64,000 bases of DNA from the IMG/VR virus record IMGVR_UViG_3300045988_131485; one strand, 5' to 3'. Shown here one piece after another: positions 25,608 to 64,000 of this stretch (the stretch's first letter is position 1; every line of letters starts with the position of its first letter). The position numbers and the translations under genes were made by a program. Below the pieces are notes generated by a model, which was not told the origin of the DNA, ran no database searches, and saw nothing but the letters and a program-made list of their open reading frames with translations. This DNA comes from a virus.

Positions 25608-27007
25608 ATGTATTGTGCCTATGTTACCAGGATTCACAATCTGAGGAAGCATACCAATGCCGACCGGCTGCTCTGTGGCGAATGTTTCGGTAATACGGTG
25701 ATTGTGGATCTCGGCACCGACCCTGATCAGCTGGGCGTGTACTTCCCTACCGATGGCAAACTCGGTTTGGAGTTCGCACAGAAGAATGACTTGCTGCGGC
25801 GCAAGGATGAGAACGGCGCTCCGGCTGGCGGATACCTTGACCCGGAGAAGCGGAATATTAAGGCTCTCAAGCTCCGGGGCGAGAAGAGCGACGGTCTGTT
25901 CCTCCCTCTCTCCTGTTTAGCTTCTTTTACCGATATCAAGAAGCTCCAAGAGGGCGATACGATCTCTGTGTTGAACGGTATCACTATCTGCGAGAAGTAC
26001 GTACCCGCCGTCAAACGCGCCTCCGGTAGTGGGGGGGTGGCAATCATGTTCGTAAGCGTTCTGATCCTATCTCCCCGCTCTTCCAAGAACACGCTGACAC
26101 GGAGCAGTTGGCCTACAACCTCTCCGCATTCCATGCTGGGGATCTGGTAGAAGTTACCCTGAAAATGCACGGAACTTCTCAGCGTACCGGCTATCTGCCT
26201 GTGTTGCAGGGCTATAAATATCGGAACCGTATGGAAAAGCGGCTCTATGAGAGTCGTAAGACCCCGAATGTGATTCGTTCCAAAATCAAGCGGGCACCCA
26301 TCTATGATTGGGGCTATGTTACCGGAACCCGCCGCGTGGTTCTGGATACCTTCGATGAGGGAGGCTTCTACGGTAATAACGCTTTCCGCGAAAAACACGC
26401 CAACGTCTTTGAAGGAAAGCTCCACAAGGGAGAGACGGTCTACTACGAGGTTGTTGGCTTCACTGACGATGGTACGCCCATCATGAATCCCGGAAACAAC
26501 TCTAAGCTGAACGACAAGGAGTTTACTAAACAGTACGGTAAAACCACCACATTCAGCTATGGCTGCGCTCCCGATGGTAAGGAACATCCCAAGTCCGATC
26601 TTTTCGTTTACCGCATGACAATGACCAACGAAGACGGTGATGTGGTGGAGTATCCGCCCGACTTTATGCGCTATCGTTGCGAACAGATGGGCGTCAAATG
26701 CGTCCAAGTGTTCTGCCGCACTATCATCCCGGACTTCTACCAGCTCCCCGACGATGTTGGATCTCCGCAGGCAGTGAACGCCGGCGAGTATGTGAAGAAG
26801 CTGGCTGAGAATTTCTACGACGGCCCCGATCCTGTCGGCCATACCCATGTTCGGGAAGGTGTCGTGTGCCGTATTGTCAACCGTCCCAAGTTCGCCGCCT
26901 ATAAGCATAAAAACTTTGCGTTCAAGGCGCTGGAGGGACTGATCAAAGACACCGCCGCCGCGCCTGATATGGAAGAAGCTCAGGATGTTGGAGAACAGAA
27001 TGGATGA
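25608..27007 (+). CDS. ATP-dependent RNA ligase (N-terminal OB-like domain plus nucleotidyltransferase domain), reading frame broken at a G7 run
   Basis: Frame 1 runs 25608-26037 and frame 2 continues ..GGNHVRKRSDPISPLFQEHADTEQL...VTLKMHGTSQR (ligase motif I). One extra G in 26031-26037 joins the two frames. Confidence 0.7.
26031..26037 (+). repeat. G7 homopolymer at the RNA ligase frame break
   Basis: agtGGGGGGGtgg; a -1 shift or +1 nt restores the ORF. Confidence 0.9.
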
Positions 27008-27116
27008 AAAAGTCGTTTTTGGCTTTATCAACAACTTCAAAGCTGGGCAGATATGGAGCAGCTTGACTCAAGCCTATACCGGAGAATGATCCGGGATTGT
27101 ATCAAAAAGGAGCGAT

Positions 27117-27950
27117 ATGACGATGACGACTTTGATCCAGAATGAGCAGAAGCGCCAGAAGATTATGGCGCGGATGCGGGAACATCTGGTGCCCGTCTTG
27201 GAGCATTGCAGGGGAGGCTGGGTCGGCCTCTTCCTGCAAGGTTCTCAGAATTATAACCTTGACTATGAGGGTAGCGATATTGACACCAAGGCAATCATGT
27301 TGCCCAGCTTTTCCGATTTCGTGTTGAACGCCAAACCTCTCAGCACTACCCACATTATGGAGAATAACGAACACGTGGATTTCAAAGACATCCGCCTCAT
27401 GTTTGACTGTATCAAGAAGCAGAATGTCAACTTTGTTGAGATCCTGTTCACCCCTTACTCCATCATCAACCCGGAGTATGCCGATCTTTTCCAGCCTGTT
27501 CTGGACGCTCGTGAAGAGATTGCCCGATACAACAACTACGCCGGGATGAACTGCATTATGGGTATGGCTCTGGAAAAGCAAAAGGCAATGGAGCACCCCT
27601 ACCCTGCCACAATGGACAAGATTGAGGCATTTGGGTATGACCCGAAGCAGCTTCACCATGCTCTGCGGCTGCGGGAGTTTATGACCCGTTACGAAGCCGG
27701 CGAGCCTTACGCTGACTGTCTTATCAGTAACCAGTGTGATTATCTCAAAGAGGTGAAGCGCGGTTGCTACTCTTTGAAAGAAGCACGGGCACTGATGAGC
27801 ACTGCAATTCAATCTATGACCGAAGACAAAAAGCGCTATATGGATACGGTGTCTGTTTCGATCAACCAGCACGCCAATGAGGTACTGCAAAAGGCTACCG
27901 TTGAAATTCTCAAACGATCCTTCTTAAAGGAAATCCAAGGAGGAGAATGA
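27117..27950 (+). CDS. Pol-beta-superfamily nucleotidyltransferase (RlaP-like, RNA-ligase-associated)
   Basis: LQGSQNYNLDYEGSDIDTKAI (GS..D.D motif) plus a helical C-terminal region with KQLHHALRL; AAGGAG SD. Confidence 0.6.
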   Translation: MTMTTLIQNEQKRQKIMARMREHLVPVLEHCRGGWVGLFLQGSQNYNLDYEGSDIDTKAIMLPSFSDFVLNAKPLSTTHIMENNEHVDFKDIRLMFDCIKKQNVNFVEILFTPYSIINPEYADLFQPVLDAREEIARYNNYAGMNCIMGMALEKQKAMEHPYPATMDKIEAFGYDPKQLHHALRLREFMTRYEAGEPYADCLISNQCDYLKEVKRGCYSLKEARALMSTAIQSMTEDKKRYMDTVSVSINQHANEVLQKATVEILKRSFLKEIQGGE

Positions 27951-27951
27951 G

Positions 27952-28866
27952 ATGCCGATGTTTTACATGATGGTTGGCCTCCCTGGTAGCGGGAAGTCAT
28001 TCACTGCCGAAAGCATCCCTAACGCCGTCGTCCACTCCAGCGATGCGATCCGTGCCGAAGTTCTTGGTGACGAGAACGACCAAACCCAACAGGACTTGGT
28101 TTTCCAAACCCTTCACAAAAGGGTTTTGCAGGATCTGGTGGATGGCAAGGATGTGGTGTACGACGCAACCAATATCAACTACAAGCGCCGTATCGGATTC
28201 CTTGATCGTATCCGAGCGCTCCACAAACATGATTTGCGTACAGTATGTCTTTTCATGGCGACGCCCTATGAGGTGTGTTTGGAGCGCAACAATAATCGGG
28301 AACGTTCTGTCCCGGAGTCTGTAATCCAAAAGATGTACTTCAAATTCGATGTTCCTATGATGGCAGAGGGTTGGGATGAAATCAGGATCGTGGGTGACGA
28401 AGATCGCCACGACCAGATTGATACCCTTATGCTTCGTCTCTCCAAGCTGGAACATGATAACCCGCACCATGAGTACACGGTTGGTCAGCACTCTATGACG
28501 GCATGGCAGTATCTGATCAGCCACTATAAAGGTGCCGATGCTGCTCTGCTCCGCGCCACGCTGTTGCACGATATTGGCAAAGAAAAGACTAAAGTATTTC
28601 ATAACATCAAAGGCAACCCCACTGAGATCGCCCACTTCTATCATCATGAGCGTGTAGGAGCTTATGACAGCTTCTGCTATACCGGCGATCTCAGTCCTAA
28701 CCAGCGCCTTACTGTGGCGCTGCTGATCCGCTGGCATATGTGGCCGTATGCGGTTGAAAAGTCAGATAATCCGAGTAAGACGGTTAGCAAAATCAAACGT
28801 CTGCTTGGTAATGATATCTGGAACCAGGTCATGGTGTTGAACGCCTGTGACCGCAATGCACACTGA
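27952..28866 (+). CDS. P-loop (polynucleotide) kinase fused to an HD phosphohydrolase domain
   Basis: MVGLPGSGKSF Walker A; LLHDIGKE and HHERVG HD-type motifs. Confidence 0.7.
   Translation: MPMFYMMVGLPGSGKSFTAESIPNAVVHSSDAIRAEVLGDENDQTQQDLVFQTLHKRVLQDLVDGKDVVYDATNINYKRRIGFLDRIRALHKHDLRTVCLFMATPYEVCLERNNNRERSVPESVIQKMYFKFDVPMMAEGWDEIRIVGDEDRHDQIDTLMLRLSKLEHDNPHHEYTVGQHSMTAWQYLISHYKGADAALLRATLLHDIGKEKTKVFHNIKGNPTEIAHFYHHERVGAYDSFCYTGDLSPNQRLTVALLIRWHMWPYAVEKSDNPSKTVSKIKRLLGNDIWNQVMVLNACDRNAH
28782..28817 (+). promoter_or_regulatory. possible internal copy of early-type repeat
   Basis: GGTTAGCAAA-N13-TTGGTAATGATAT inside the 3-prime end of the kinase-HD CDS, 65 nt before the next start. Confidence 0.25.
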
Positions 28867-28882
28867 ATAGGAGGAAATAACT

Positions 28883-29341
28883 ATGATTCCCGACATGATC
28901 CACACTCCCTACATCGCTCCCCGCATCTCTGTTATGGCACCCCCCCCGGTAACTGCTGAACGGTTCGTTGATGAGCTTCTGAGCGGCCTGTGTATGCCGG
29001 ACGGCGGCTTTGTTGCCCATCTCGCTCCCAGCGGAGATCCTTTCTCCAACGGTTGGAATGCGGCAATGAAGCTCCAAGCCAGTCAGCCTACTTCTCGCTG
29101 TTTGCCGATGCCCGTCAATGTGATCTTTCACAACCCGGCCACCATCGTGTTCTGGGATGACGGTGATAAGACGGTTGTGAAGTGCCAGCCCGGTGATACA
29201 TTCAGCGCCGAAGCCGGCCTGACTGCTGCCATGCTGAAGAAGTACATGGGCAACGACAATACTTTCAACAAGGTCATCAACGAGTGGCTGGCTCGTGCCA
29301 GCTATGCCAGCGTCCCCGCTCTGCCGGAGGCCACAGAGTAA
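28883..29341 (+). CDS. hypothetical protein
   Basis: AGGAGG SD; contains an in-frame C8 run at 28940-28947. Confidence 0.6.
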   Translation: MIPDMIHTPYIAPRISVMAPPPVTAERFVDELLSGLCMPDGGFVAHLAPSGDPFSNGWNAAMKLQASQPTSRCLPMPVNVIFHNPATIVFWDDGDKTVVKCQPGDTFSAEAGLTAAMLKKYMGNDNTFNKVINEWLARASYASVPALPEATE

Positions 29342-29408
29342 CCAATGGACGGTATCATCCTACTGCTTTTGGCTCTGGTGCTGATTTATACGGTAGGATC
29401 GGGCGGCG

Positions 29409-30383
29409 ATGACGACAATCATTGGAACCGGGGAGGTGGGTGCTTTGCATAGCAGAGAAGAGTTGGAAGAGATGCAGCACCTGCCTCTCCAACGCAAAAT
29501 CCAGATCACTACTGCTCGTATCATCGAGTGGTATCAGCACTACGACGGGAAGGTCTATGTGGCATTTAGCGGTGGTAAGGATTCTACCGTACTACTCGAT
29601 ATTGTGCGGCGGATCTACCCCGATGTGCCTGCTGTTTTCTCTGATACCGGGCTTGAGTTCCCGGAAGTCAGAGAATTTGTTAAGAGCTGTGAAAACGTTA
29701 CGATTGTCCGGCCTGAGATGAACTTCCGTAAAGTTATTGAGGTGTACGGATATCCCGTTGTCTCGAAGCGTGTAGCTGACACTGTGGAATATGGGCATAA
29801 GCCTGGTTCTTTCAGATGGAAAGAGCTACATGGAGAGATCATGCGGAGCAACGGAACGCCGTCAGAGTTCAACTGTGAAAAATGGTGCTATCTATTGGAT
29901 GCCCCATTCAAGGTTTCTTCTCGGTGCTGTACAATCATGAAGAAGCAGCCTATGAAGAAATACTCCAAGGAAACTGGTCGAGTGCCTATTATTGCAACTA
30001 TGGCAAACGAGAGCAGATCTCGGCGTGCCACATGGTTACGTATGGGATGCAATGCTTTTTCCGGTAAGAAGCCCAGCTCCCAACCCATGTCTTTTTGGAC
30101 TGAGGAAGATGTGCTGGAATACCTCTATACCTATCAAGTCCCCTACGCTTCGGTTTATGGCGAGATCGTCAGAACTGATAGGGGGGGGTGGACGACGACA
30201 GGCGAAAAGCGTACTGGCTGTGTCTTTTGTGCCTTTGGCGCTCACCTTGAAAAAGCTCCAAACCGTTTCCAGCGTCTAAAAATCACGCACCCAAAGCTCT
30301 GGGATTACTGCATGAGGCCGTGGGAAGAACATGGTTTGGGTATGCGGCAAGTCCTTGAGTATATTGGTATTCCGGTAGAATAA
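29409..30383 (+). CDS. PAPS-reductase-family PP-loop ATP pyrophosphatase
   Basis: VAFSGGKDSTVLLDI; C-terminal RTGCVFCAFG; in-frame G8 run at 30181-30188; the start is uncertain (alternative ATG 29472). Confidence 0.8.
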   Translation: MTTIIGTGEVGALHSREELEEMQHLPLQRKIQITTARIIEWYQHYDGKVYVAFSGGKDSTVLLDIVRRIYPDVPAVFSDTGLEFPEVREFVKSCENVTIVRPEMNFRKVIEVYGYPVVSKRVADTVEYGHKPGSFRWKELHGEIMRSNGTPSEFNCEKWCYLLDAPFKVSSRCCTIMKKQPMKKYSKETGRVPIIATMANESRSRRATWLRMGCNAFSGKKPSSQPMSFWTEEDVLEYLYTYQVPYASVYGEIVRTDRGGWTTTGEKRTGCVFCAFGAHLEKAPNRFQRLKITHPKLWDYCMRPWEEHGLGMRQVLEYIGIPVE

Positions 30384-30406: not shown

Positions 30407-31063
30407 ATGATTGATGTAATGGAAAACATCAAAAAACTCTCCGCCGCTTTGGATGCGGAAACTGCAAGCCTACATCCTTCCGGCAAGCTGCTTCTGCTTG
30501 GTTCTCAGGATAGCGTGTTCCTGAAAGCCATCAAGCGTAAGGCAGACCAGCTTGGTATCAACTGTGATCATACGTCCAACCCTCTCCCTCCCTATCGAGG
30601 GATTGTTGTGGATAGTGAAACAGTGTCGTTCAACTCTATTCTCGATCCTGATGTGGATATTGACCACTCTTATTCTCCCGGAATGTCGGCGGTCTCTCAA
30701 GCAGTCATGGATTTGCTAATTGAGTCTGGATTGGTATGGGAGAAGGATATTACCATCGTAGGCCGAGGGCACGCCGTTAAAGAACTGGCGAAGTATTTGG
30801 ACTTTAACAACGCGACGGTTACAGTAGCACATTCCAAAACAAAAAGCCTGTTGCAAGCTACGCAGAACCGGGATGTGGTGATTTACGCAACTCCGATTAT
30901 CACGCAGGATATTTCCTACAATACCCGCGATCTGGTTATTGATCTGGGAAACAGCGTCCCGCATCCTGACCGGCTTAATTGCCCCTATGTAAATCGGATC
31001 GGACAGCTTACCGTAAGTATATTGCTGAACCGTTTTGCAAAGAAGGAGTCGGTATGGATCTGA
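30407..31063 (+). CDS. FolD-like (methylene-THF dehydrogenase/cyclohydrolase-like) protein, divergent
   Basis: ITIVGRGHAVKELAKYLDFNNATVTVAHSKTKSL...DVVIYATP...VIDLG matches the FolD NAD(P)-binding half. Confidence 0.5.
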   Translation: MIDVMENIKKLSAALDAETASLHPSGKLLLLGSQDSVFLKAIKRKADQLGINCDHTSNPLPPYRGIVVDSETVSFNSILDPDVDIDHSYSPGMSAVSQAVMDLLIESGLVWEKDITIVGRGHAVKELAKYLDFNNATVTVAHSKTKSLLQATQNRDVVIYATPIITQDISYNTRDLVIDLGNSVPHPDRLNCPYVNRIGQLTVSILLNRFAKKESVWI

Positions 31064-31264
31064 AATTCAACACAGTATATTTTACCCAAAAACCTATTCC
31101 GCTGCCCCATGCGATTTTTAAGGGCGGCGAAAATAATTCAAATTTAGAAAGGAGCTAATACCAATCCCGGTAAACCGGGTTTCTACAAGATTGATAAGTG
31201 TAGAGTAAAGCCGTCTGTTACAGCGTGAAAGCCATCTGGCCGGTAGCAAGGGAGGATTAGACGG

Positions 31265-32107
31265 TTGACCTCAGCCGAGATGGTTGTGGTCGGTATGAAG
31301 CACATCGTTTGTTTTTCTGGCGGTCATTCCTCTGCGATTGCCGCCGTGGAAGTAGTTAGAAAGTTCGGAGCAGAGGACACGATCTTGCTCAATCATGATT
31401 TGTGTCCTCGAACCGAAGACGCTGATATCAAGCGTTTCAAAAAACAGGTTTCGGATTATCTGGGCGTTCCCATTACTTACGCCAATATGCCCGGATGGTA
31501 TGTTAAGGATCAGTTCGACGTGTGTATGGAAATCAAGGCGTTTAAGGCTGGCGCTCAGTCCACCGCCTTTTGCACCAACAGACTGAAAACCGAACCTTTT
31601 CATAAATGGCTGTCCGAGCACTATCCCGCAAATCCTCCCGAAGTAAGGGACGATATCTCATTAGTCTATGGCTTTGACGCCAATGAACAGCACCGTATTC
31701 GGCGCAGAGTTGGCATTATGGCCGCGATGGGGTACCAAACAGAGTACCCTTTGACATGGGAGGTACGTACTATCCATGACATCGAGGAGGTTGGGATTGA
31801 GCGTCCGAAGACCTACAGCATTTTCAATCATGCAAATTGTACCGGGTGTCTGAAAGCCGGCAAACAACATTGGTTTGTTGTTTATTGCCTCTATCCTAAA
31901 ATATGGGAAAAGGCGAAGCTGGCCGAAGACACAATCGGGTACAGTATTCTCAAACAAGGCTATCTTTCAGACTTTGAGGCGGAATTTGCCAAGCTCAAAG
32001 AAAAGGCGTTGCCGCCCACTGAAAAAGCCAAACCTCAAACATTTTGGGCCGCTGCACGAAAGCTCATCAAGGACGACGATGATCTACCGTGTGAGTGCTC
32101 ATTTTAA
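31265..32107 (+). CDS. second PP-loop ATPase (PAPS-reductase-like)
   Basis: IVCFSGGHSSAIAA; TTG start 8 nt after AGGGAGGA. Confidence 0.6.
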   Translation: MTSAEMVVVGMKHIVCFSGGHSSAIAAVEVVRKFGAEDTILLNHDLCPRTEDADIKRFKKQVSDYLGVPITYANMPGWYVKDQFDVCMEIKAFKAGAQSTAFCTNRLKTEPFHKWLSEHYPANPPEVRDDISLVYGFDANEQHRIRRRVGIMAAMGYQTEYPLTWEVRTIHDIEEVGIERPKTYSIFNHANCTGCLKAGKQHWFVVYCLYPKIWEKAKLAEDTIGYSILKQGYLSDFEAEFAKLKEKALPPTEKAKPQTFWAAARKLIKDDDDLPCECSF

Positions 32108-32120
32108 GGAGTTGTTTAAG

Positions 32121-32687
32121 ATGAAGATTCTTGTAATAGTGGATATGCAAAACGATTTCATCAATGGTGCGCTCGGAACCCCGGAGGCGCAGGCCGCTGT
32201 TGGAGATGTCGCCAAAAAGATTTCTGGCTTTGACGGAGACCTGATTTGCATTACCAAGGACACCCATCGTTCTGCCGACTACCTGAAAACCCAAGAAGGT
32301 CAGCTACTTCCTGTCGAGCACTGCATTGAGGGGACTCACGGCTGGCGGCTCGACGATATCATTGCCACGGCTGTTAGCCATGCGGCTATCGACGCGGAGA
32401 AAAGCGTATCCGTATTCCAGAAAGGTACGTTTGGCTCTGTGGAGTTGGGCGATTACCTGGTAGAGCTTTCCGCCAGAAGGAAGCAGCGCATTGAAGAGAT
32501 CGTTTTCGTTGGACTCTGCACCGACATCTGCGTTATCTCTAACGCACTGCTCGTCAAAGCGTTTCTACCTGAGACGAAAATCACCGTTGACGCTGCCTGC
32601 TGTGCCGGCGTTACCCCGGCAAGCCACAAAAATGCTCTGGCTGCTATGAAAGCGTGCCAGATCAATGTGGAGAACTGGGAGGTCTGA
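32121..32687 (+). CDS. isochorismatase-family hydrolase (nicotinamidase PncA-like)
   Basis: KILVIVDMQNDFINGALG...; conserved Cys in VGLCTDICV. Confidence 0.8.
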   Translation: MKILVIVDMQNDFINGALGTPEAQAAVGDVAKKISGFDGDLICITKDTHRSADYLKTQEGQLLPVEHCIEGTHGWRLDDIIATAVSHAAIDAEKSVSVFQKGTFGSVELGDYLVELSARRKQRIEEIVFVGLCTDICVISNALLVKAFLPETKITVDAACCAGVTPASHKNALAAMKACQINVENWEV

Positions 32688-36397: not shown

Positions 36398-36416
36398 TTG
36401 CAACAAAGTAAATCAA
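36398..36416 (+). repeat. leader motif copy
   Basis: TTGCAACAAAGTAAATCAA, then GAGG. Confidence 0.5.
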
Positions 36417-36427
36417 GAGGTGCAGCT

Positions 36428-36954
36428 ATGAAGATGGATAAGGTTGCCGGCAGTGGCAACGACGAGTTCTATACACCGGAGTATGCGATTGCCCCGTTGT
36501 ACAAGTATCTTCCACCCCCCCCGTGACAATTTGGTGTCCGTTTGACACTGAGGATAGTCTGTTTGTAAAGCTCTTTCGGCAACGCGGCTATACCGTTATC
36601 GCAACACATATTGCAAACGGTCAGGATTTTTTCGCTATTGACCCACCGAAGTGTGACTACATCATCAGTAATCCTCCGTATTCCCTCAAAGGCGAAGTGT
36701 TTGAGCGACTATTCCAGTTGAATATACCCTTTGCTATGTTGGTAGGGGTCGTCGGACTTTTCGAGAGTCAGAAACGCTTTAAGATGTTCCGTGAGCATGA
36801 TTTTGAAATCATGTATCTCAATCGGCGTGTATCTTACTTTAAGAACTACGCCGACCAAAAGCCGTCTCTAAACCCGCCTTTCAGTAGTGTCTATGTATGC
36901 AAAGGAATGTTACCAAAGCAGATTATCTTTGAAGAAATTCAAAAAACCTCATAA
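36428..36954 (+). CDS. second DNA N6-adenine methyltransferase, frame broken at a C8 run
   Basis: MKMDKVAGSGNDEFYTPEYAIAPLYKYLPPPP then stop. The -1 frame continues TIWCPFDTEDS...IISNPPYS. One extra C in 36515-36522 joins them. Confidence 0.75.
36515..36522 (+). repeat. C8 homopolymer at the methyltransferase frame break
   Basis: ccaCCCCCCCCgtg. Confidence 0.9.
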
Positions 36955-36973
36955 TAGCAACAAAGAAAATTAT
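36955..36973 (+). repeat. leader motif copy
   Basis: TAGCAACAAAGAAAATTAT. Confidence 0.5.
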
Positions 36974-37001
36974 TGACTTTATGGAGACAGTATGATAGAA
37001 T
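36973..37001 (+). promoter_or_regulatory. sigma-A-type promoter
   Basis: TTGACT - 17 nt - TAGAAT with TG at the extended -10 position; lies between two leader-motif copies. Confidence 0.65.
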
Positions 37002-37044
37002 AAAAGCAGTTCGAGGGAGATTGTAAATCCCTCAACCTTCCGTT

Positions 37045-37063: not shown

Positions 37064-37079
37064 CAAAGGAGGAACTAAT

Positions 37080-37957
37080 TTGGATTACCAAACTGCCCTT
37101 TTCTGCGAGTTCGATCGTTACGCCGCAGAAAGCTATTGCGCCGTTCATGGTGTTGATCCCACCCTTAACATCGGAGATATTACCAAAGCCGATGAGAAGG
37201 CTGTGCCGGATTTCAATGTCATGTTCGGTGGAAGTCCGTGTCAGGATTTCAGCATAGCAGGCAAACAGGGGGGGGCTGCATGGACTTGTAAGCATTGCGG
37301 CCACGTATATAATCCCCTGGAAGCTCACTATGATCAACGCGACCATTGCCCTAAGTGCGGATCAACTGAAATCGAGAAGACTCGCTCTTCCTTACTGGTC
37401 GAATGGCTGCGTTTCCTAAGAGAAAAGAAGCCTCGCTTCGCTATCTACGAGAACGTTAAAAATATTACCGGTTCTCGCTTCTATGCCACTTTTAACCTCT
37501 TTGTCAAAGAGCTGGAAGACTACGGTTACAACGTCTACTGGCAGGTTCTGAATGCAAAACACTACGGAATCCCCCAGAATCGTGAGCGTGTTTACTGTGT
37601 CATCATTCGTAAGGATTTAGATAATGGGAAGTTTAAGTTCCCGTCTCCTATCCCTTTGAAAAAAGCGCTGGTAGATATGCTGGAGGATAAGGTTGACGAG
37701 CGATACTACCTGCCTGATGACAAGGTAGCTGCCATGATAACCCCCCCCGTTCAGACAAATCAGTAACACCGTCCGCACCAGCGGAAGAGGTTCCACAGAC
37801 CACCACTGCTGGGACTTGCTCACTTGCCGGTGTGAAGCTGAGTAAGAAAGGCACCCAGTTTGAAGGATACTGTGAGACGGCCTTGACTTTGCTGGCCCGT
37901 GACTATAAGGGCTTTGGAAATCAGCAAATGACAGGAGTTATGGAGCATAATGAGTAA
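37080..37957 (+). CDS. C5-cytosine DNA methyltransferase, part A (motifs IV-VIII, lacks motif I), frame broken at a C8 run
   Basis: TTG start 8 nt after AAAGGAGGAA; GGSPCQDFSIAG, YENV, QNRERV. After 37741-37748 the -1 frame continues ...ETALTLLARDYKGFGNQQMTGV to the stop at 37957. Confidence 0.8.
37741..37748 (+). repeat. C8 homopolymer at a C5-methyltransferase frame break
   Basis: ataaCCCCCCCCgtt. Confidence 0.9.
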
Positions 37958-38869
37958 GCGATATATTATCCCCGCTGCAATTCGTGGAAGATATGCGGGG
38001 GGGGTAAGATAATACAGCGTTTGGAAGTTCGCCCTAATATGTGTACCAACACTTTGACGGGTGTTCAAAAAGACAATGTATTGATTGAGATAGATGAAAG
38101 CGAGGAAGCTAATGTGAAAATCGTATGTGAGCGTCGATGCGATGAAGGTGTGCGTTTTTTCAAAGATAATGTCTGCGGCACTATTCGCACCATTGATGGG
38201 GGGGGGGACAAGAGAGTGATTGAAAGAAGTCCTACGTCAGAAGATAAAATCACAATGATTGGCGGCTTACAAAAGCACCAGACTCCAAGAAACGATGGTA
38301 TTTGCCCATGCATAAATAGTGCCGCTGGTATGGGCGGCGGACAAACACCTATCGCAATACGCCCGAGTTTTCGTGTCCGTAAACTTACGCAAAAAGAGTG
38401 TTGGCGTTTAATGGGTTTCCAAGATCAGGACTTTGAACGTGCCAAATCCGCCATGAACGAAAATATCTATGGTGGAGCAGATAGGAGCGGGTCACAGCTT
38501 TACAAGCAGGCTGGAAACTCTATCGTGGTAGACGTTCTCTGTGCCATTTTGGATGAACTTCACAGTGCTATGCCGTATCTCTTTGAAGATATGACTGTTG
38601 GTTCTTTCTTTTCCGGTATCGGAGCATTTGAAAAAGCACTGTCTACTTTTGATATTACCGATGTTAGCGACAAAGTAAATTATTCTGATAAGAATGATGA
38701 ACTGAAGCAGCTCGGATATATCAATGATTACAATGGAGACGCCAATCGTGTATATGATGGCGAAACCATTGCACGTGCTTTGAAAGCCGAAGCGGGAGGG
38801 GGCGGAGCCAAGACTGGATGGTATGCTCTGAGAAGCCCGGAGGTTGACCATGGAGAAAGTCAGAATTAA
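37950..38869 (+). CDS. C5-cytosine DNA methyltransferase, part B (target-recognition region, motifs IX-X, then an out-of-order motif I), frame broken at a G8 run
   Basis: ATG 37950 overlaps the part A stop; MSKRYIIPAAIRGRYAGG, then the -1 frame gives KIIQRLEVRPNMCTNTLTGVQKDN...RKLTQKECWRLMGF...YKQAGNSIVVDV...MTVGSFFSGIGAFEKAL. Confidence 0.75.
37997..38004 (+). repeat. G8 homopolymer at a C5-methyltransferase frame break
   Basis: tgcGGGGGGGGtaa. Confidence 0.9.
38665..38683 (+). repeat. leader motif copy inside the C5-methyltransferase part B reading frame
   Basis: TAGCGACAAAGTAAATTAT, exactly where similarity to a methyltransferase N-terminus stops. Confidence 0.5.
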
Positions 38870-39065
38870 GCAGGCCACCCAAAAAGGTTATATCGAGTGT
38901 GCTGTGGGGGGGGTAGCGGATTTATCTTACCCGTCCAGTAAAACTCGAAGAGGTCGAGTCCAGGAAGGTGGTTGGATTTGTCCAACTATCACTGCAACAG
39001 AAACCGGCATTTGTCGGATAGAAAGAGGTGATTCATATGAGCATTGCGTTGAGAAACCGCCGTGA
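38844..39065 (+). pseudogene. C5-methyltransferase target-recognition-domain-like fragment
   Basis: IKQATQKGYIECAVGGVADLSYPSSKTRRGRV resembles methyltransferase TRD segments; no catalytic motifs; in-frame G8 at 38906-38913. Confidence 0.45.
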
Positions 39066-39324: not shown

Positions 39325-39584
39325 TGTATGGTGAATACACCTGTCTGGACTGTGGCAAAACCTTTGACGATCCGAAGCGATGGGAAGAACGCCATGGGTT
39401 AGATTCTCCGCCCTATGAGGATTTCAGCGGTTGTCCTTACTGTGGCGGAGCCTATGCCCGTACTATCCTTTGCGATGCCTGCGGAGAACCGATAGTCGGC
39501 GATTATGTCAAAATCCAAACAACTGGCGACTGCTATTGTGATGAATGCTTCATGATGAAATCGCTGGGCGAAGATGATCCATGA
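39324..39584 (+). CDS. zinc-ribbon protein
   Basis: Stop-start overlap TGATG; CLDCG...CPYCGG...CDACG...CYCDEC. Confidence 0.6.
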   Translation: MYGEYTCLDCGKTFDDPKRWEERHGLDSPPYEDFSGCPYCGGAYARTILCDACGEPIVGDYVKIQTTGDCYCDECFMMKSLGEDDP

Positions 39585-40378
39585 GAAGAGGTCGTGAAAT
39601 GAAAACTTCAGTCAAACGGCGTGCGAAAAACTGCATACGGGGAGCGGTTTTATTGGCCTGTTTCATTGCCGTCTGGTATGTGGCCTCGTGCTTCACCCAA
39701 CCGCTGTTTATCCCCGCCCCTGCTACCGTCTGGGAAGCAATCGTCGGGTTGGCAGAGACAGGCCAGTTGCAAAAAGGACTTGCCTACTCTTTCCTGCGGA
39801 TTACTGGTGCGTCTGCTCTTTCTATGCTGGTAGCAATTCCCCTCTCCCTTCTGATTTATGGCGTGAAGCCTATCAAGGAAACTATCATGCCGGTTGTTTC
39901 CTTCCTGCGGTATGTTCCCGTAACCGCATTTTCTCCGCTCCTGATCCTATGGTTTGGGATTGGGGAGCAGATGAAAATTTCGTTCCTATTTATTGCAACG
40001 TTTGTCTACTTGCTGCCGTCGATCCTGCTTTGCTTTAACGACGTACCGCAAGATCTGATGGATACGGGCAAGACAATCGGAATGACCAGTTGGGAGACAA
40101 TCAAAGAAATCCTGCTCCCCGCATCGCTCCCTTCAATATTCAGTACGTTCCTTATGATGTATGGCATTGGCTGGACATACTGCGCCGTGGTAGAGGCAAC
40201 CAACGCTAAGTACGGCTTGGGCTTCATCATCAATGTAAGCTCCGCCAGAGGCCGTACCGCCGTGGTGTTCGGGGCAATCATCGTAATCATGTTGTTCAGC
40301 TTCGTTTTTGACAAGCTGGGGAACTTGCTGATCCGAAAGATATTCCAGTGGAGGTACTGCGATGATCAAGTTGAATGA
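39581..40378 (+). CDS. ABC transporter permease (NitT/TauT-type)
   Basis: Six hydrophobic segments; EAA-loop-like region ...DTGKTIGMTSWETIKEILLPASLPSIFST. Confidence 0.85.
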   Translation: MRRGREMKTSVKRRAKNCIRGAVLLACFIAVWYVASCFTQPLFIPAPATVWEAIVGLAETGQLQKGLAYSFLRITGASALSMLVAIPLSLLIYGVKPIKETIMPVVSFLRYVPVTAFSPLLILWFGIGEQMKISFLFIATFVYLLPSILLCFNDVPQDLMDTGKTIGMTSWETIKEILLPASLPSIFSTFLMMYGIGWTYCAVVEATNAKYGLGFIINVSSARGRTAVVFGAIIVIMLFSFVFDKLGNLLIRKIFQWRYCDDQVE

Positions 40379-41003
40379 TCTGGCTATTGGGTACAACGGC
40401 GAAGCAATTCTGGAGCACATCGACCAGGAATTTGACGACGGTTTGATTTACGGTATTTTGGCGAAGTCTGGTGCCGGTAAGACGACTCTCCTCAAAACCA
40501 TCTCTGGCCTTCTTCACCCTGTTCATGGTGAGGTTATCATTGATGGCACTACCTATCGGAACGCCGACAAGAACCCTGTGTACATGATGCATCAGCGCTA
40601 TTCCAACTTCGGATGGCTTTCCTGCACGGAGAATGTGCTGATTGCCCAACGGGACAAAAAACTCCGTAGCCGCGATGACGCTATCAAGGTACTTGCAGCG
40701 GTTGGGTTAGAGCAGTATGCAGATAAATGGCCGTCTCAGCTATCAGGTGGTATGCAACAGCGCCTTGCGTTGGCGAGAACACTGTATGTCAAGCCGAAAT
40801 ACCTACTTATGGATGAACCGTTATCCGCTTTGGACGACAAAACCCGTAGCAAAATGCAGCGTTTGATTTTGGATGTCCATGCTGAGACAGGCAACACAAT
40901 CATTATGGTAACGCACAGCCAGGACGAGGCGTTCAAAATGTGCGATAAAATAATCAAATTTGAAACGAGAGGAGCTGTAACAAACCATGGCAGGTTTATT
41001 TGA
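40362..41003 (+). CDS. ABC transporter ATP-binding protein
   Basis: LAKSGAGKTTLL (Walker A), LSGGMQQRLALAR (signature), LLMDEPLSALD (Walker B). Confidence 0.9.
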   Translation: MIKLNDLAIGYNGEAILEHIDQEFDDGLIYGILAKSGAGKTTLLKTISGLLHPVHGEVIIDGTTYRNADKNPVYMMHQRYSNFGWLSCTENVLIAQRDKKLRSRDDAIKVLAAVGLEQYADKWPSQLSGGMQQRLALARTLYVKPKYLLMDEPLSALDDKTRSKMQRLILDVHAETGNTIIMVTHSQDEAFKMCDKIIKFETRGAVTNHGRFI

Positions 41004-54922: not shown

Positions 54923-57217
54923 ATGGTTGTCATTAAACGTGATGGCCGTGAAGCCGACTTTGACAAAGGCAAAATTGCCAACGCCATTCTCAAGGCATTC
55001 ACGGAGGTTGAAAAGCTCAGTGCGGTAGGAGATAAGAACGAGGTGCCCAAGAAAATCTCCACCCGTTTGTATAACCGCTATCAGCGGCGCAACCGTGCGA
55101 TTTCTGTTGAGGAAATCCAGGACGACGTTGAAACTGAGCTGATGAAAGAGGGCGAGTTCGTAGTCGCCAAAGCGTACATCAAGTATCGCTATGAACATGA
55201 GCTTCTGCGGAACGCTTCTTCTCTGGACGGCAAAATCCTCTCTATTGCGGATAACGTCAATGAAACAGTCATCCAGGAGAACAGCAACAAAAATCCCACA
55301 ATCCTCTCTACTCAGAGAGACTACATCGCCGGCGAGGTAAGCCGCGATATTACTGACCGTCTGCTTATGCCGGATGACATTAAGCAGGCGCACGAAGAGG
55401 GTGTTATCCACTTCCATGACAGTGACTACTTTGTGCAGCACATGATGAACTGCTGTCTGATCAATCTGGAAGATATGCTCCAGAACGGCACAGTTATTTC
55501 CGGTACCTTGATTGAAAAGCCTCACTCCTTCTCAACTGCCTGCAACGTCGCTACCCAGATCATTGCTCAGGTAGCCAGCAATCAGTATGGCGGTCAGTCT
55601 ATCTCCCTGTCCCACCTTGCCCCCTTTGTTGAGGTGAGCCGGCAAAAGATTCGCAAGCAGGTAGAGGCTGAGTTCCTGAAAATTTCTTCCCCGGACAACT
55701 TTGCAGACCCTGAGAAAGTGATCTCTGATCTGGTCGAAGAGCGTGTCCGTGAAGAAGTAAAGAAGGGCGTTCAGACTATCCAGTATCAAGTGATTACTCT
55801 CATGACCACCAACGGTCAGGCTCCGTTCATTACTGTCTTTATGTATCTGAACGAGGTCAGCGATCCTCAAACCAAGAAAGACCTCGCTATGATTATCGAA
55901 GAAGTCGTGCGGCAGCGGTATCAAGGCGTCAAAAATGAGAAGGGCGTTTGGACAACCCCGGCGTTCCCCAAGCTGATCTATGTGCTGGAAGAGGATAACA
56001 TCACCGAGGATTCTCCCTACTGGTATTTGACCCAGCTGTGTGCCAAGTGCTCTGCCAAACGGCTGGTGCCCGACTACATCTCCGAAAAGAAGATGCGCGA
56101 GTACAAGCTGTCAAAGGGCGAAACCGAAGGTAACGGCGATTGCTATACCTGTATGGGATGCCGTAGCTTCTTGACACCCGACCGCTCCGGTAACGGCTGG
56201 GACAATGTTGCCAATGCCGGCAATTACCAGCCCGATAAGCCCAAGTATTACGGGCGTTTCAACCAGGGAGTCGTCACCATCAACCTCCCCGATGTTGCTC
56301 TGAGCGCTCTGAAAGTTTGGGAGGCAACCGGCGACCATAACGACATCCAGAATTTGTATGACACCTTCTGGGAGATTTTCGATGAGCGGCTGGAGCTGTG
56401 TCATAAGGCGCTGCAAATCCGTCACGAGCGTTTGAGTGGTACTCTGTCCGATGCTTCTCCTATCCACTGGCAGTACGGCGCTTTGGCCCGCCTGAAAAAG
56501 GGCGAAACCATCGACAAGCTGCTTCACGGCGGCTACTCCACCATCTCTTTGGGTTATGCCGGCCTATACGAATGTGTTATGGCGATGACTGGCAAGAGCC
56601 ATACCGACCCGGACGGAGAGCCTTTTGCACTCAAGGTTATGCAGTACATGAACGACAAGTGCGCTGCATGGAAAGCCGCTGAGGATATCGACTACTCTCT
56701 CTACGGTACTCCTATTGAGAGTACCACCTATAAATTTGCTAAGTGTCTGCAAAAGCGCTTTGGTGTGATTGAGGGCATCACCGATAAGGGCTACATCACC
56801 AACTCCTATCACGTTCACGTCACAGAGCATATCAATGCTTTTGATAAGCTGAGATTTGAGTCTCAGTTCCAGAAGCTCTCTCCGGGCGGAGCAATCAGCT
56901 ACATCGAAGTGGCAAACCTCTCTGACAACATCCCCGCCGTACTGACGGTGTTGAAGTACATCTACGACAACATCATGTATGCGGAGCTGAACACGAAATC
57001 CGACTACTGCCAGGTGTGCGGCTGGGATAAGGAAATCGAGATTGTGGACGACGATCGCGGCAAGCTGATTTGGAAGTGCCCCAACTGCGGGAATACCGAT
57101 AAGAGCAAGATGAACATTGCGCGGCGTACCTGCGGCTACATCGGCCTGAATGACTGGAATCAGGGTAGAACGCAAGAAATCAAAGAACGTTATGTCCACC
57201 TGGGTGGCGACGAATGA
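54923..57217 (+). CDS. nrdD: anaerobic ribonucleoside-triphosphate reductase
   Basis: N-terminal ATP-cone (VIKRDGREADFDKGKI); C-terminal zinc site CQVCG..CPNCG; glycyl-radical motif RRTCGYIG. Confidence 0.95.
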   Translation: MVVIKRDGREADFDKGKIANAILKAFTEVEKLSAVGDKNEVPKKISTRLYNRYQRRNRAISVEEIQDDVETELMKEGEFVVAKAYIKYRYEHELLRNASSLDGKILSIADNVNETVIQENSNKNPTILSTQRDYIAGEVSRDITDRLLMPDDIKQAHEEGVIHFHDSDYFVQHMMNCCLINLEDMLQNGTVISGTLIEKPHSFSTACNVATQIIAQVASNQYGGQSISLSHLAPFVEVSRQKIRKQVEAEFLKISSPDNFADPEKVISDLVEERVREEVKKGVQTIQYQVITLMTTNGQAPFITVFMYLNEVSDPQTKKDLAMIIEEVVRQRYQGVKNEKGVWTTPAFPKLIYVLEEDNITEDSPYWYLTQLCAKCSAKRLVPDYISEKKMREYKLSKGETEGNGDCYTCMGCRSFLTPDRSGNGWDNVANAGNYQPDKPKYYGRFNQGVVTINLPDVALSALKVWEATGDHNDIQNLYDTFWEIFDERLELCHKALQIRHERLSGTLSDASPIHWQYGALARLKKGETIDKLLHGGYSTISLGYAGLYECVMAMTGKSHTDPDGEPFALKVMQYMNDKCAAWKAAEDIDYSLYGTPIESTTYKFAKCLQKRFGVIEGITDKGYITNSYHVHVTEHINAFDKLRFESQFQKLSPGGAISYIEVANLSDNIPAVLTVLKYIYDNIMYAELNTKSDYCQVCGWDKEIEIVDDDRGKLIWKCPNCGNTDKSKMNIARRTCGYIGLNDWNQGRTQEIKERYVHLGGDE

Positions 57218-58078: not shown

Positions 58079-58086
58079 GAGGAAAT

Positions 58087-59729: not shown

Positions 59730-59915
59730 GTGAATGAAACACCGATTTCACCCACATCTAAATGGTGTGACAATCAGTCCGTAGACGAGCTGGGCAAAGT
59801 AATCTGCTTGGCCCATCTCGCCGAGGCCAGAGTTCCAGACTGTCCATACAAAAGTAAGGAGGAGCGAGCGAGTGCCAAATATCCTTGCTCCGACTATGAA
59901 GAGGTGAGAACATGA
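59730..59915 (+). CDS. hypothetical small protein
   Basis: GTG start after AAGGAGGG. Confidence 0.5.
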   Translation: MNETPISPTSKWCDNQSVDELGKVICLAHLAEARVPDCPYKSKEERASAKYPCSDYEEVRT

Positions 59916-61546: not shown

Positions 61547-61559
61547 CAACAAACTTCAT

Positions 61560-61578
61560 TAGCAACAAAGAAAATCAC
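61560..61578 (+). repeat. leader motif copy
   Basis: TAGCAACAAAGAAAATCAC. Confidence 0.5.
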
Positions 61579-61588
61579 GGCTTCCCTC

Positions 61589-61617
61589 TTGACAAATTGG
61601 GAGGCCGTGATTATACT
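61589..61617 (+). promoter_or_regulatory. sigma-A-type promoter embedded in a 13-bp hairpin
   Basis: TTGACA - 17 nt - TATACT. The -35 sits in the loop of the hairpin and the spacer forms its 3-prime arm (ATCACGGCTTCCC 61574-61586 / GGGAGGCCGTGAT 61599-61611). Confidence 0.6.
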
Positions 61618-61624
61618 ATGTATA

Positions 61625-61643
61625 TAGCAACAAAGTAAATTAT
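61625..61643 (+). repeat. leader motif copy
   Basis: TAGCAACAAAGTAAATTAT, then tctaccattatAGGAGG. Confidence 0.5.
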
Positions 61644-61668
61644 TCTACCATTATAGGAGGACTGCCAA

Positions 61669-62121
61669 ATGAAAGTAGCTATGGTAAAGCATAAGCCCTA
61701 TGGCAAGGTGTTCTGGTTCGAGATCCCTGAGCACCTTGTAGGCAAACTTCAGCCCGGATTTCGTGTGGCCTGTAATACAGCGCGTGGTCGGCGGTATGGC
61801 ACCGTAGTGGCTGCGGATCTTGACGAGCAGGATGTGAAAGAGGTTATGTTGGCCTCCGGCGCTACCTTCCCGCTCTCCACAATCGAAGCCACCACCCAGG
61901 AGGTACTGATAAGCGCCATCAAGATTCCGGGATATATGGCCCGCACAAAGCCCAGCGATGAGAAGATCGCAAAGCGTTTTCTGGAGTTCTATCATACCGG
62001 CCAGTTCAATACCAATGTTGCCCTGGACGATAACGCCGTCTTGATTGACGGCTATTCCGCCTATCTGGTAGCGCAAAAAGTTGGCCTCGCGCTCCTCCCT
62101 GCAATCTACAAGGAGGTCTGA
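61669..62121 (+). CDS. hypothetical protein with a ParB-N-like C-terminal segment
   Basis: AGGAGG SD; ...NAVLIDGYSAYLVAQKVGL resembles the ParB/Srx DGhhR motif region (weak). Confidence 0.6.
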   Translation: MKVAMVKHKPYGKVFWFEIPEHLVGKLQPGFRVACNTARGRRYGTVVAADLDEQDVKEVMLASGATFPLSTIEATTQEVLISAIKIPGYMARTKPSDEKIAKRFLEFYHTGQFNTNVALDDNAVLIDGYSAYLVAQKVGLALLPAIYKEV

Positions 62122-62124
62122 GAT

Positions 62125-62865
62125 ATGCCCGGATTTGTAAAACCTACAAGAAAGGTTGTCAACATTGAAGATGCCTTTGGAGAGCTGATTGGGAAGAAAC
62201 TCATAAAGGATCTCCATGACAATGAGGAGATTTGCCCTGTTTGTCATGGTATCGGCCTCCGTATTGAAGATAATCCTTATGGGTTGTCTGACGACCCCGA
62301 TAAGAAAGCCGGCCAATTCCCCTACAAGCACCAGTCTATCCGGTTCTGCCCGAACTGTTATAACGGTGTTGTACGTTTTTGCCCCGACTGTGGAAAGCAG
62401 ATTCCGAGATGCCGAACACTTTGCGACTGCGATGCCGTTGTGCAGCGCCGCCAGCAGGAAGAAAACCGCAAAGAAAAAGAACGGCTCGAAAAAGCAGAAA
62501 AGCACGAGCCGAATGCGCTCGGATCGTTATTTACAATGGCACAAAGCGACTTTTACTCTCACAACGAAGGATATTTCAGCTGTTGGGAGGATTTCTTTGA
62601 TAGCTGGAATGAAGATCGTGAAGAGTTCACGGGAAAGCCACTGTACGTATGGGGAACCGAAGAGGTAGAGATGAGTTTCGATGCTTCAAGCATCGTATCC
62701 AATGCCTGTGAGGATATGTATGAAGATGCTTATGATGACATTGGAGCAGACGCTGTTGCTGAGATGCAGCGCTACCTCAACGAATGGAAAGAGAAATATG
62801 GGCGTACGTCCTATTTGCTGACTACCAAGCACGCTATCCGTATTCCTTGGGAGGAGATGAAATAA
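62125..62865 (+). CDS. zinc-finger protein, function unknown
   Basis: AGGAGG SD; CPVCHG...CPNC...CPDCG. Confidence 0.65.
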   Translation: MPGFVKPTRKVVNIEDAFGELIGKKLIKDLHDNEEICPVCHGIGLRIEDNPYGLSDDPDKKAGQFPYKHQSIRFCPNCYNGVVRFCPDCGKQIPRCRTLCDCDAVVQRRQQEENRKEKERLEKAEKHEPNALGSLFTMAQSDFYSHNEGYFSCWEDFFDSWNEDREEFTGKPLYVWGTEEVEMSFDASSIVSNACEDMYEDAYDDIGADAVAEMQRYLNEWKEKYGRTSYLLTTKHAIRIPWEEMK

Positions 62866-62867
62866 CA

Positions 62868-63722
62868 ATGGCAAAGAAAAACGACAATCTGGGCGACCGC
62901 ATGAAAGGCTATGAGGGTGTTTCTCGCAACTTCTTAACCCGCCGTGTGCCCGCAATCATCCGACTTGACGGCAAGGCGTTCCACACCTTCACGAAGGGCA
63001 TGGAAAAGCCTTTCGATCTCGTACTGACTCAGGCTATGCAGGAGACGATGAAGCATCTCTGTGAGAACATCCAGGGCTGTGTGCTTGGTTACACTCAGTC
63101 CGATGAGATCACTCTGGTGCTGACAGACTATGCTACTATCCAGACCGACGCCTGGTTTGGATATAACATTCAGAAAATGTGCAGCGTTTCGGCGTCGATG
63201 GCAACTATGGCATTTAACAGGGAGTTTGAACGTATCGCTGAGGATTGGTTTCACGACAATGGCCCGTATTGGAAATCTATCGGTGTCGATGTTGACGTCG
63301 ATCTTACCATATATAAACGGTACAATGCCTACCAGAAAAAGATGTTCACTGCCATGTTCGACTCCCGCGTTTTCTCTGTCCCAAAAGAAGAGGTCTGTAA
63401 CTGTCTGATCTGGCGGCAGCAGGACGCAACCCGAAACAGCATTGAGGCCGTAGGTCAGGCCAATTTTAGCCATCACGAGCTGCACAAAAAGACCTGCAAC
63501 ATGATTCAGGAAATGCTTTGGTCTCAGCGAGGCATTAACTGGAACGATTTCCTCACAGAGCTGAAGCGCGGTTCCTGTTGTATTAAACGGCAGTTTGAAG
63601 AAACCATCGACGATCCTCGCAACCCCGACCAGAAAATTACTGTGCGCCGTAACAGATGGATTATCGACCACGAAATTCCCATCTTCACTCAGGATCGGGA
63701 ATATATCGAAAGGTTGATTTAA
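62868..63722 (+). CDS. Thg1-like protein (tRNA-His guanylyltransferase family, 3-prime-to-5-prime polymerase)
   Basis: LGDRMKGYE...PAIIRLDGKAFHTFTKG...PFD...GYTQSDEITLVL; ATG 62868 after GGGAGGAG. Confidence 0.75.
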   Translation: MAKKNDNLGDRMKGYEGVSRNFLTRRVPAIIRLDGKAFHTFTKGMEKPFDLVLTQAMQETMKHLCENIQGCVLGYTQSDEITLVLTDYATIQTDAWFGYNIQKMCSVSASMATMAFNREFERIAEDWFHDNGPYWKSIGVDVDVDLTIYKRYNAYQKKMFTAMFDSRVFSVPKEEVCNCLIWRQQDATRNSIEAVGQANFSHHELHKKTCNMIQEMLWSQRGINWNDFLTELKRGSCCIKRQFEETIDDPRNPDQKITVRRNRWIIDHEIPIFTQDREYIERLI

Positions 63723-63735
63723 GGAGGCCATAAAA

Positions 63736-64000
63736 ATGTCCCATATTTATGAGAATGATACGAAGCCCATTCTGAGCGACCCTCCGTATCTGTTGCAATT
63801 CATTTTGTCCGTGGTGCTGTCTGTGCTCTGTGGAGCGACCATCATGTTCATGTGGAACTGGTTCGTTGTCCCGCTCGGGCTTCCCATGATTGGCCTGGTA
63901 CAAGCGCTGGGGCTTGATACGCTCATCACATTCATTGTGACCACCAGAGTCAATACCCCCCCCGATCCATTCTGGGATCGTTGGATCACTGCTATCACCT
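63736..64000 (+). CDS. membrane protein, 3-prime end beyond the window
   Basis: ATG 63736 after AAGGAGG; hydrophobic (LLQFILSVVLSVLCGATIMFMWNWFVVPLGLPMIGL); in-frame C8 at 63956-63963. Confidence 0.55.
   Translation, partial: MSHIYENDTKPILSDPPYLLQFILSVVLSVLCGATIMFMWNWFVVPLGLPMIGLVQALGLDTLITFIVTTRVNTPPDPFWDRWITAIT

Follow-up and report, generated by a model that had tools for sequence, protein, structure and literature searches.

We report that a 64,000-nt stretch of viral DNA (IMG/VR virus record IMGVR_UViG_3300045988_131485, the whole of which is called the window in what follows) carries an excess of long G and C homopolymers inside its genes, and we suggest that these are probably conserved, selected and hypermutable contingency loci of a temperate phage that infects Oscillospiraceae of the human gut. 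There are eleven such tracts, here numbered T1 to T11, each 7-10 nt long and located inside an open reading frame (ORF), so that the gain or loss of a single nucleotide alters the frame. Ten of them had been named in an original prediction made from the letters of the window alone, and all ten were located exactly; the eleventh, T9, is the interrupted run GGGAGGGGG at 38794-38802. The four frame breaks described in that prediction, each into the -1 frame, are real (26031, 36515, 37741 and 37997), its remaining six tracts are in frame, and the clustering of six tracts in a block of methyltransferase genes (36.5-38.9 kb) was confirmed. Tracts were measured with flank anchors allowing substitutions only, and all lengths, those at the window's four breaks included, are states of consensus assemblies.

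Tracts, with their lengths in nt and the number of assemblies showing each
T1, 26031-26037, + strand: G7, out of frame (G8 is in frame); 7 in 6, 8 in 11
T2, 28940-28947, + strand: C8, in frame; 7 in 2, 8 in 13, 9 in 1
T3, 30181-30188, + strand: G8, in frame; interval lengths 6 in 1, 7 in 6, 8 in 10, 9 in 3
T4, 36515-36522, + strand: C8, out of frame (C9 is in frame); 7 in 1, 8 in 23, 9 in 3, 10 in 2
T5, 37268-37275, + strand: G8, in frame, just past the catalytic PCQ motif (GKQGG); 7 in 4, 8 in 30, 9 in 4
T6, 37741-37748, + strand: C8, out of frame (C9 adds target-recognition domain (TRD) 1 to the alpha polypeptide of the C5 methyltransferase); 7 in 5, 8 in 15, 9 in 19, 10 in 2
T7, 37997-38004, + strand: G8, out of frame (G9 joins the start of the beta polypeptide to its body); 7 in 2, 8 in 23, 9 in 11, 10 in 2
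T8, 38198-38207, + strand: G10, in frame, within TRD3; 7 in 2, 8 in 8, 9 in 19, 10 in 5, 11 in 1
T9, 38794-38802, + strand: interrupted, in frame, an uninterrupted G8-G10 in relatives; 8 in 8, 9 in 21, 10 in 4
T10, 38906-38913, + strand: G8, in frame; 7 in 3, 8 in 19, 9 in 6, 10 in 1
T11, 63956-63963, + strand: C8, in frame; gained recently, to judge from the relatives

Excess and selection of long G/C runs

The window has a GC content of 49.6%, and its G and C runs fall into two separate length groups. There are 92 G runs of 4 nt, four of 5, none of 6, one of 7, four of 8 and one of 10, and 127 C runs of 4 nt, eight of 5, none of 6 or 7 and four of 8; taken together, no run of 6 nt and a single G7 separate the short runs from nine of at least 8 nt. 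Shuffled sequences hold far fewer of these long runs, 1.4 at order 0 (maximum 5 in 200 shuffles), 0.25 at order 2 and 0.46 at order 3, and the guess in the original prediction that chance would yield one or two was right for the order-0 shuffle. An order-5 Markov control (4.3 expected) was uninformative, the tracts being partly memorised by the model. In a stricter control, synonymous codons were permuted 2000 times with the proteins and the overall codon usage held fixed; this gave an expectation of 0.96 +/- 0.94 runs of at least 8 nt (maximum 5 in 2000), against 10 observed in the conceptually joined coding sequences, so that the predicted excess is borne out both by shuffling and by permutation within fixed proteins. 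The same control expected about 12 G/C runs of exactly 6-7 nt, where none is observed, and 9.8 A/T runs of at least 7 nt, where three are. GGG is the rarest glycine codon (12.4%), and GGG-GGG pairs occur six times against 1.5 expected. Since long runs are in excess and runs of 6-7 nt are missing, the genome shuns accidental slippery runs and retains long ones at particular sites.

The same signature is found in close relatives, with 1.12 G/C runs of at least 8 nt and 0.06 runs of 6-7 nt per 10 kb, against 0.02 and 0.25 respectively in more distant phages that share these genes (1.78 Mb); judged by these densities, the excess is specific to the clade. One relative, L008, has 71% nucleotide identity to the window and a GC content of 43%, and tracts persist in it at the positions orthologous to T3, T4, T5, T6, T9 and T10, with T3 as G9 in frame, T4 as C8, T6 as C9 in frame and T10 as G9. 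It also has extra tracts in its Pnkp-like gene and its first N6 methyltransferase gene, that is, in neighbouring accessory genes. The codon permutation and the retention of position at 71% identity together indicate that the tracts are over-represented and maintained by selection, and not by base composition.

Within the window the tracts belong to an accessory island of RNA-repair, NAD-salvage and PAPS-reductase-like genes and three DNA methyltransferases, and none was found in the DnaE, primase-helicase, NrdD or large helicase genes. T11 lies at the far end, in a gene for a small membrane protein, where most relatives read VNTNPDPFW; seven have CCAACCCC, without a tract, three have C8 with 3 nt more, and one (L093) has C9, which frameshifts the gene. 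On these alleles, T11 is a recent gain.

Tract lengths vary between near-identical genomes

Relatives were drawn from IMG/VR loci, from 26 human-gut ENA contigs retrieved by a pattern anchored on the tract at 37741, and from nine ENA and Logan contigs encoding an identical NAMPT protein, up to 41 independent assemblies in all, 93-99.7% identical to the window. The comparison of tract lengths among independent assemblies, which the original prediction had proposed, finds polymorphism at every tract: lengths span 6-11 nt among some 40 independent assemblies, tract positions are conserved, and T4 to T8 alone occur in 14 distinct combinations of in-frame and out-of-frame states in 25 genomes. Between the closest genomes, indels are almost all at tracts. 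Over 21,490 nt, L207 and L208 differ by one substitution, four tract changes and no other indel, and L206 and L212 by four substitutions and three tract changes; in these comparisons, tract-length change is decoupled from sequence divergence.

Many of the comparison contigs are SPAdes-style 'NODE' assemblies of human-gut samples, and the reliability of homopolymer lengths in them can be judged from two sides. In three replicate-like pairs (L002/L003, L006/L012 and L159/L182) the shared sequence is identical and every tract agrees. Among A/T homopolymers, those of 7-8 nt that are intergenic or in doubtful small ORFs do vary, so the control was set on coding A6, T6 and A7 runs, which are invariant among relatives (14 of 14, for example); there is no coding A8 or T8 run to set directly beside the tracts. 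Contigs from the Human Microbiome Project and L178, assembled at 28x coverage, also differ from each other at tracts. Because replicates agree at every tract although near-identical genomes differ, systematic under-calling, which had been put forward to account for the uniform direction of the four breaks, is not supported as a general explanation; the probability that four breaks share a direction by chance is about 0.125.

Separately, A/T runs of 6-8 nt that are intergenic or lie in doubtful small ORFs (1705-8396) vary by 1-4 nt among close relatives; these are likely terminator or promoter tracts.

The methyltransferase genes

The features of the methyltransferase block that matter here are as follows.

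36428-36954, + strand: second N6-adenine methyltransferase gene (DEFYTP...NPPY), split at T4; weak match to PF05869 (Dam)
36973-37001, + strand: promoter-like site TTGACT-17-TAGAAT with TG upstream, 10 of 12 positions, the best consensus match in the region and a consensus match only
37080-37957, + strand: C5 methyltransferase alpha, with motifs II-VIII, a zinc-ribbon insert and TRD1; PF00145, E 1.7e-47
37950-38869, + strand: C5 methyltransferase beta, with TRD2-4, motifs IX and X, then motif I (GSFFSGIGAFEKAL) and TRD5; PF00145, E 7.7e-9
38844-39065, + strand: 73-aa ORF with a TRD-like module (TRD6), fused in frame to beta in the homolog P0112

Each state of the N6 methyltransferase is represented in protein databases. 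Intact homologs of 175 aa (P0121 and P0123) read LPPPPVTIW across T4; P0121, the C9 form, has 122 members, the C8 form (P0141) has 563, and the C7 form, which is fused to the third frame (P0136), has 232. P0123, with 248 members at 89% identity, has T4 in frame, and the in-frame PPPP run is also present in homologs 75-89% identical. A Bacillus chromosomal homolog is without the proline run. We rejected the notion that the gene in fact consists of two coupled ORFs with a GTGA stop/start overlap (36523): L008 has GCA GTA at this point, and intact 175-aa homologs are common. In two further database proteins, P0122 and P0132, the first and second N6 methyltransferases are fused by recombination.

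The C5 methyltransferase is divided between two ORFs, alpha and beta. Downstream of the promoter-like site, alpha has a ribosome-binding site (RBS), AAGGAGGA, and starts with TTG at 37080. A hairpin, GAGGGAgattgtaaaTCCCTC (36997-37040), separates the promoter-like site from this RBS and may be a regulatory or leader element. In the window, alpha is truncated past T6 by a stop at 37766, and other genomes have it called at 292 aa (C9) or 228 aa (C8). The alpha stop and the beta ATG overlap (ATAATGAGTAA, 37950-37957), and many beta homologs start at the same M..IPAAIRGRY; one homolog, P0112, has all parts of the enzyme joined in a single frame. The original prediction held that one more nucleotide restores the ORF at every break, which is correct for each break taken singly; at this locus, though, the corrections restore separate alpha and beta ORFs and not one. 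A +1/+1 repair yielding a single C5 methyltransferase was tried and discarded, as T6 and T7 are separated by a stop (…VMEHNE*) and the alpha/beta split recurs in homologs.

C5 motifs I, IV (PCQ), VI (ENV), VIII (QxRxR), IX and X are all present, in the order II-VIII, TRDs, IX, X, I. Alpha aligns with M.HhaI, and when the motif I segment is placed before alpha the alignment becomes continuous with M.HhaI residues 17-92, from which we conclude that the enzyme is circularly permuted. Its family, with over 6000 homologs in databases, has motif X followed by motif I throughout. Recurring sequence signatures mark four TRD-like modules in the stretch from motif VIII to motif IX and another two past motif I, and the content of these modules differs among homologs. 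Homologs also differ at the tracts themselves: at T7, beta homologs read RGRYAGGGRI, RGRYAGEGKI or MRGGRIVQ, and past T9 they read three frames (AGGGGAKTGWY, AGGAEQRPDGT or AGGGRSQDWMV).

Several potential internal starts adjoin the beta tracts. An ATG abutting T7 (37992-38004) is in frame at G7, and the homologs P0004 and P0005 start MRGG/MWGG; an ATG overlapping the first G of T8 (38196-38218) shares the frame of the body downstream when the tract is G8 or G11; and a GTG at 38216, 8 nt past the G run of T8, is in the body frame, the G run being a possible Shine-Dalgarno-like element. In most genomes, ORFs of 204-217 aa with PF00145 matches are called from a GTG just past T8.

The frame states of the N6 and C5 methyltransferases thus differ between genomes, and phase-varying expression is a candidate consequence. 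Tract state may select protein isoforms instead of simple ON and OFF. A bolder form of this idea, which we find conceivable but on balance doubtful, is a combinatorial specificity switch in which each of the six or seven tracts of the C5 locus adds or removes one target-recognising module. T6 would add or remove TRD1 at the C-terminus of alpha; T7 and T8 would add or remove TRD2 and TRD3, with the GTG at 38216 keeping TRD4 and motifs IX, X and I expressed; and T9 and T10 would swap C-terminal modules. If such a switch exists, one prophage could yield dozens of distinct m5C methylomes, on the phage DNA and on the chromosome of the lysogenic host, and would amount to a mobile, phage-borne phasevarion in gut commensals.

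Other tract-bearing genes

The remaining tracts lie in four genes.

25599-27007, + strand: RNA ligase gene, split at T1 in the window
28883-29341, + strand: 152-aa ORF of no assigned family, with T2 19 codons past its ATG
29409-30383, + strand: PAPS-reductase-like gene carrying T3; PF01507, E 2.6e-20
63736-64000, + strand: small membrane protein gene carrying T11, 104 aa in relatives, running off the end of the window

The RNA ligase label of the original prediction finds no Pfam match, and it is upheld by PHROG 968 (RNA ligase), which the +1-corrected protein matches across the break (residues 5-447, E 4e-61). The gene is intact (464-466 aa) in L207, L208, L210, L211, L213 and L214 and split in L206, L209 and L212. 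Calls of the PAPS-reductase-like gene range from 230 to 324 aa among near-identical genomes, and the 152-aa ORF has neither a Pfam nor a PHROG match.

Mechanism and alternative explanations

We propose that, when the DNA is copied by the phage's DnaE-type polymerase or, in a lysogen, by the host replisome, slipped-strand mispairing would add or remove one G:C pair at a tract and so shift the reading frame of the gene that bears it. The genes toggled would be those of the N6 methyltransferase, the split and permuted C5 methyltransferase with its six tracts, the RNA ligase, the PAPS-reductase-like protein, the 152-aa ORF and the small membrane protein, and a phage population would be a mix of many on/off combinations. 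The likely benefit would be bet-hedging among counter-defence genes: self-methylation would shield the phage from classical restriction while making its DNA a target for Type IV (methylation-dependent) restriction, and repair of RNA would help against only some defences. As regards contingency tracts for methylation and RNA repair, then, the original prediction gains comparative support (conserved, codon-selected and hypervariable tracts), while the uniform +1 direction that it stressed is neither significant nor general.

Several observations weigh against this proposal. Most genomes have T4, T7 and T8 out of frame (26 of 29, 27 of 38 and 28 of 35, respectively), and L008 has T4 at C8 with the same offset as the window; a pure ON/OFF switch would hence need gut conditions to favour the OFF state strongly, or else RNA-level slippage or internal starts. 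Several ENA contigs have 1-5x coverage, where one miscalled read could set the consensus. The methyltransferase block (36399-36955 and 37070-39021) is missing or replaced in the close relatives L011 and L013, which makes it dispensable; these two retain the intergenic segment 36955-37070, and the block hence behaves like a cassette.

The first of these points would be met by programmed recoding, in which stuttering of RNA polymerase or -1 ribosomal slippage on runs of 8-10 nt gives an in-frame product, the tracts being expression devices whose changes in DNA length are tolerated and the N6 methyltransferase being normally expressed in this way at C8. In 23 of 29 assemblies, as in L008, T4 is indeed C8 with an unchanged -1 offset; in L008 the ORF downstream is open and 72% identical and the junction has no start codon (GCA GTA, not GTG ACA); C_CCC_CCG at T4 is a formally valid X_XXY_YYZ slippery heptamer in the zero frame, and T7 and T8 are likewise mostly out of frame. 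Yet no consistent stable RNA structure was found downstream of nine tracts (z of 0.12 and -0.36 at T4, with only T6 near -2.5), in-frame T4 alleles are common at the DNA level in databases (P0121 and P0123), and tract lengths are not fixed as they would be at a tuned recoding site (C7-C10 at T4, 7-11 elsewhere). RNA polymerase slippage is, moreover, documented mainly for A/T runs. We therefore regard recoding as an unlikely substitute for DNA-level variation, although the two could act together. Neutral decay would have the tract genes dispensable and turning into pseudogenes, the tracts being mutational hot spots with no adaptive role. The many out-of-frame alleles, the absence of the block from L011 and L013, and the recombinant or deleted methyltransferase variants P0122 and P0132 fit such a course, but decay would hardly build tracts from the rarest glycine codon and over-represent them 10-fold while runs of 6-7 nt are absent, nor hold their positions at 71% identity and keep the ORFs past out-of-frame tracts open and conserved. 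The entire C5 methyltransferase is in frame in L176, and the existence of fully in-frame alleles implies that the ORFs are maintained; with P0121 and P0112 also in frame and a tract gained at 63956, we consider decay very improbable. The least probable reading by our estimate, to the point of being barely credible, is that homopolymers were miscalled (under-called in the window) and that the true genes are all in frame with no biological length variation. Some sequencing platforms do tend to make errors at G/C homopolymers, one more nucleotide is needed at each of the window's four breaks, and there are the contigs at 1-5x; errors, however, can neither create nor conserve tracts, lengths deviate in both directions, replicate-like assemblies and coding A6-A7 runs do not vary, each length state of the N6 methyltransferase is backed by 122-563 database sequences, and L178 differs at 28x.

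Gene context, relatives and host

RNA-repair genes at 22862-28866 encode a TROVE/DUF2828-like RNA-binding protein, a class V aminotransferase, the RNA ligase, and a kinase with an HD phosphatase (Pnkp-like), and a Thg1-like tRNA-His guanylyltransferase gene lies further downstream (62784-63722). Between 31875 and 35776 follow in a row genes for a nicotinamidase-like protein (isochorismatase family), a PRPP-synthetase-like (Prs-like) protein, NAMPT and NAD synthase, which looks to us like a phage module for the salvage or rebuilding of NAD+, of a type reported to overcome defences that deplete NAD. Directly past the methyltransferase block, an ABC-transporter permease (BPD_transp_1) and an ATPase (39581-41003) are unusual phage cargo.

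Relatives also show differences of other kinds. Two indels relative to the window, neither of them at a homopolymer, recur in several genomes, one of 23 nt near 31052 (31052-31078) and the other a 1-nt insertion at 32121, the latter where the ORFs 31265-32107 and 31875-32687 overlap. The NrdD match (54923-57217) is some 880 nt longer in the near-identical L093, L094 and L107 (3174 against 2292 nt), which suggests insertion of an intron, an intein or a homing element without a counterpart in the window.

A phage at 99% DnaE identity is present in the genomes of cultured Hominicoprocola fusiformis CLA-AA-H269 and Dysosmobacter segnis BX15 (L185 and L186), in the latter within a 388-kb contig, which identifies it as a prophage. 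Relatives 71-89% identical are found in other Oscillospiraceae and Clostridia genomes. A megablast search of the methyltransferase block against deposited phages returned no match, and the nearest of the deposited phages share about 40% identity with it in DnaE.

Known systems and implications

Contingency loci in phages are already known; what would be new here is that their targets are the phage's own methyltransferases, and a targeted literature search found no phage-encoded methyltransferase under homopolymer-tract control. Campylobacter phages carry hypermutable polyG tracts in ORFs (Sorensen et al., 2021, Cell Rep 35:109214, as cited in PMC12823448). On the account given there, the likeness lies in having several G homopolymers per genome, within ORFs, of variable length and with phenotypically mixed populations. 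By that same account the phages are lytic and AT-rich, and the tracts, located in receptor-binding and structural genes, alter host range, whereas the present ones are found in a 50% GC temperate phage of Firmicutes, in DNA-modification, RNA-repair and accessory genes, as both G and C runs on the coding strand, with six or seven in one methyltransferase locus. Phages T2 and T4 have contingency loci made of poly-A runs, one of them in the DNA-modification gene agt (Gomez, Barrick and Waters, 2025, PMC12633550). These too are slippage-prone mononucleotide repeats in phage ORFs, and agt switching trades sensitivity between two restriction systems, the logic that we propose for the methyltransferases (PMC12633550). 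The T2 and T4 tracts differ in that they are A runs 6-9 nt long, about as dense as an AT-rich genome would lead one to expect and present in all gene classes, with experimental evidence for their switching (PMC12633550); those of the window are G/C runs of 8-10 nt in 10-fold excess, with shorter runs purged and positions conserved, in accessory genes only, and the evidence is comparative.

Bacterial phasevarions offer the other obvious parallel, in the Type III mod and Type I hsd methyltransferases of Haemophilus, Neisseria, Helicobacter and Moraxella (PMC6902483, PMC3936762), where simple-sequence repeats within DNA-methyltransferase ORFs switch methylation ON and OFF. Those are chromosomal restriction-modification genes, often with tetra- or pentanucleotide repeats and with regulon control shown, whereas here we deal with phage-borne, orphan, Type II-like N6 and C5 methyltransferases. 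Protection of phage DNA is the likelier role for them than control of a regulon.

Multispecific C5 methyltransferases are familiar from the Bacillus phages SPR, phi3T, rho11s and H2, and M.AquI is an enzyme split into alpha and beta polypeptides. Like the former, the C5 methyltransferase of the window has a series of TRD-like modules in tandem from motif VIII to motif IX, and like M.AquI it is predicted to be split into two polypeptides within the variable region. Unlike the Bacillus-phage enzymes, the one in the window is circularly permuted, has TRD-like modules past motif I and carries homopolymer tracts at or near most TRD boundaries; we know of no report of either permutation or homopolymer tracts for the Bacillus-phage enzymes.

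Phage contingency loci have been recognised only recently, and the hypothesis put forward here would extend the strategy to the methylation and RNA-repair genes of an abundant temperate gut phage, with an unusually clear signature of selection in that long G/C runs are kept and shorter ones purged. The existence of cultured lysogens makes it directly testable. If it is correct, 'frameshifted' phage genes in metagenomes are not necessarily errors or pseudogenes, which affects their annotation, and methylation-based binning and host linkage would be affected as well. Many methylation states would coexist in populations of a single phage strain, with a bearing on how phages escape both classical and methylation-dependent restriction, and possibly with epigenetic heterogeneity among the lysogens themselves.

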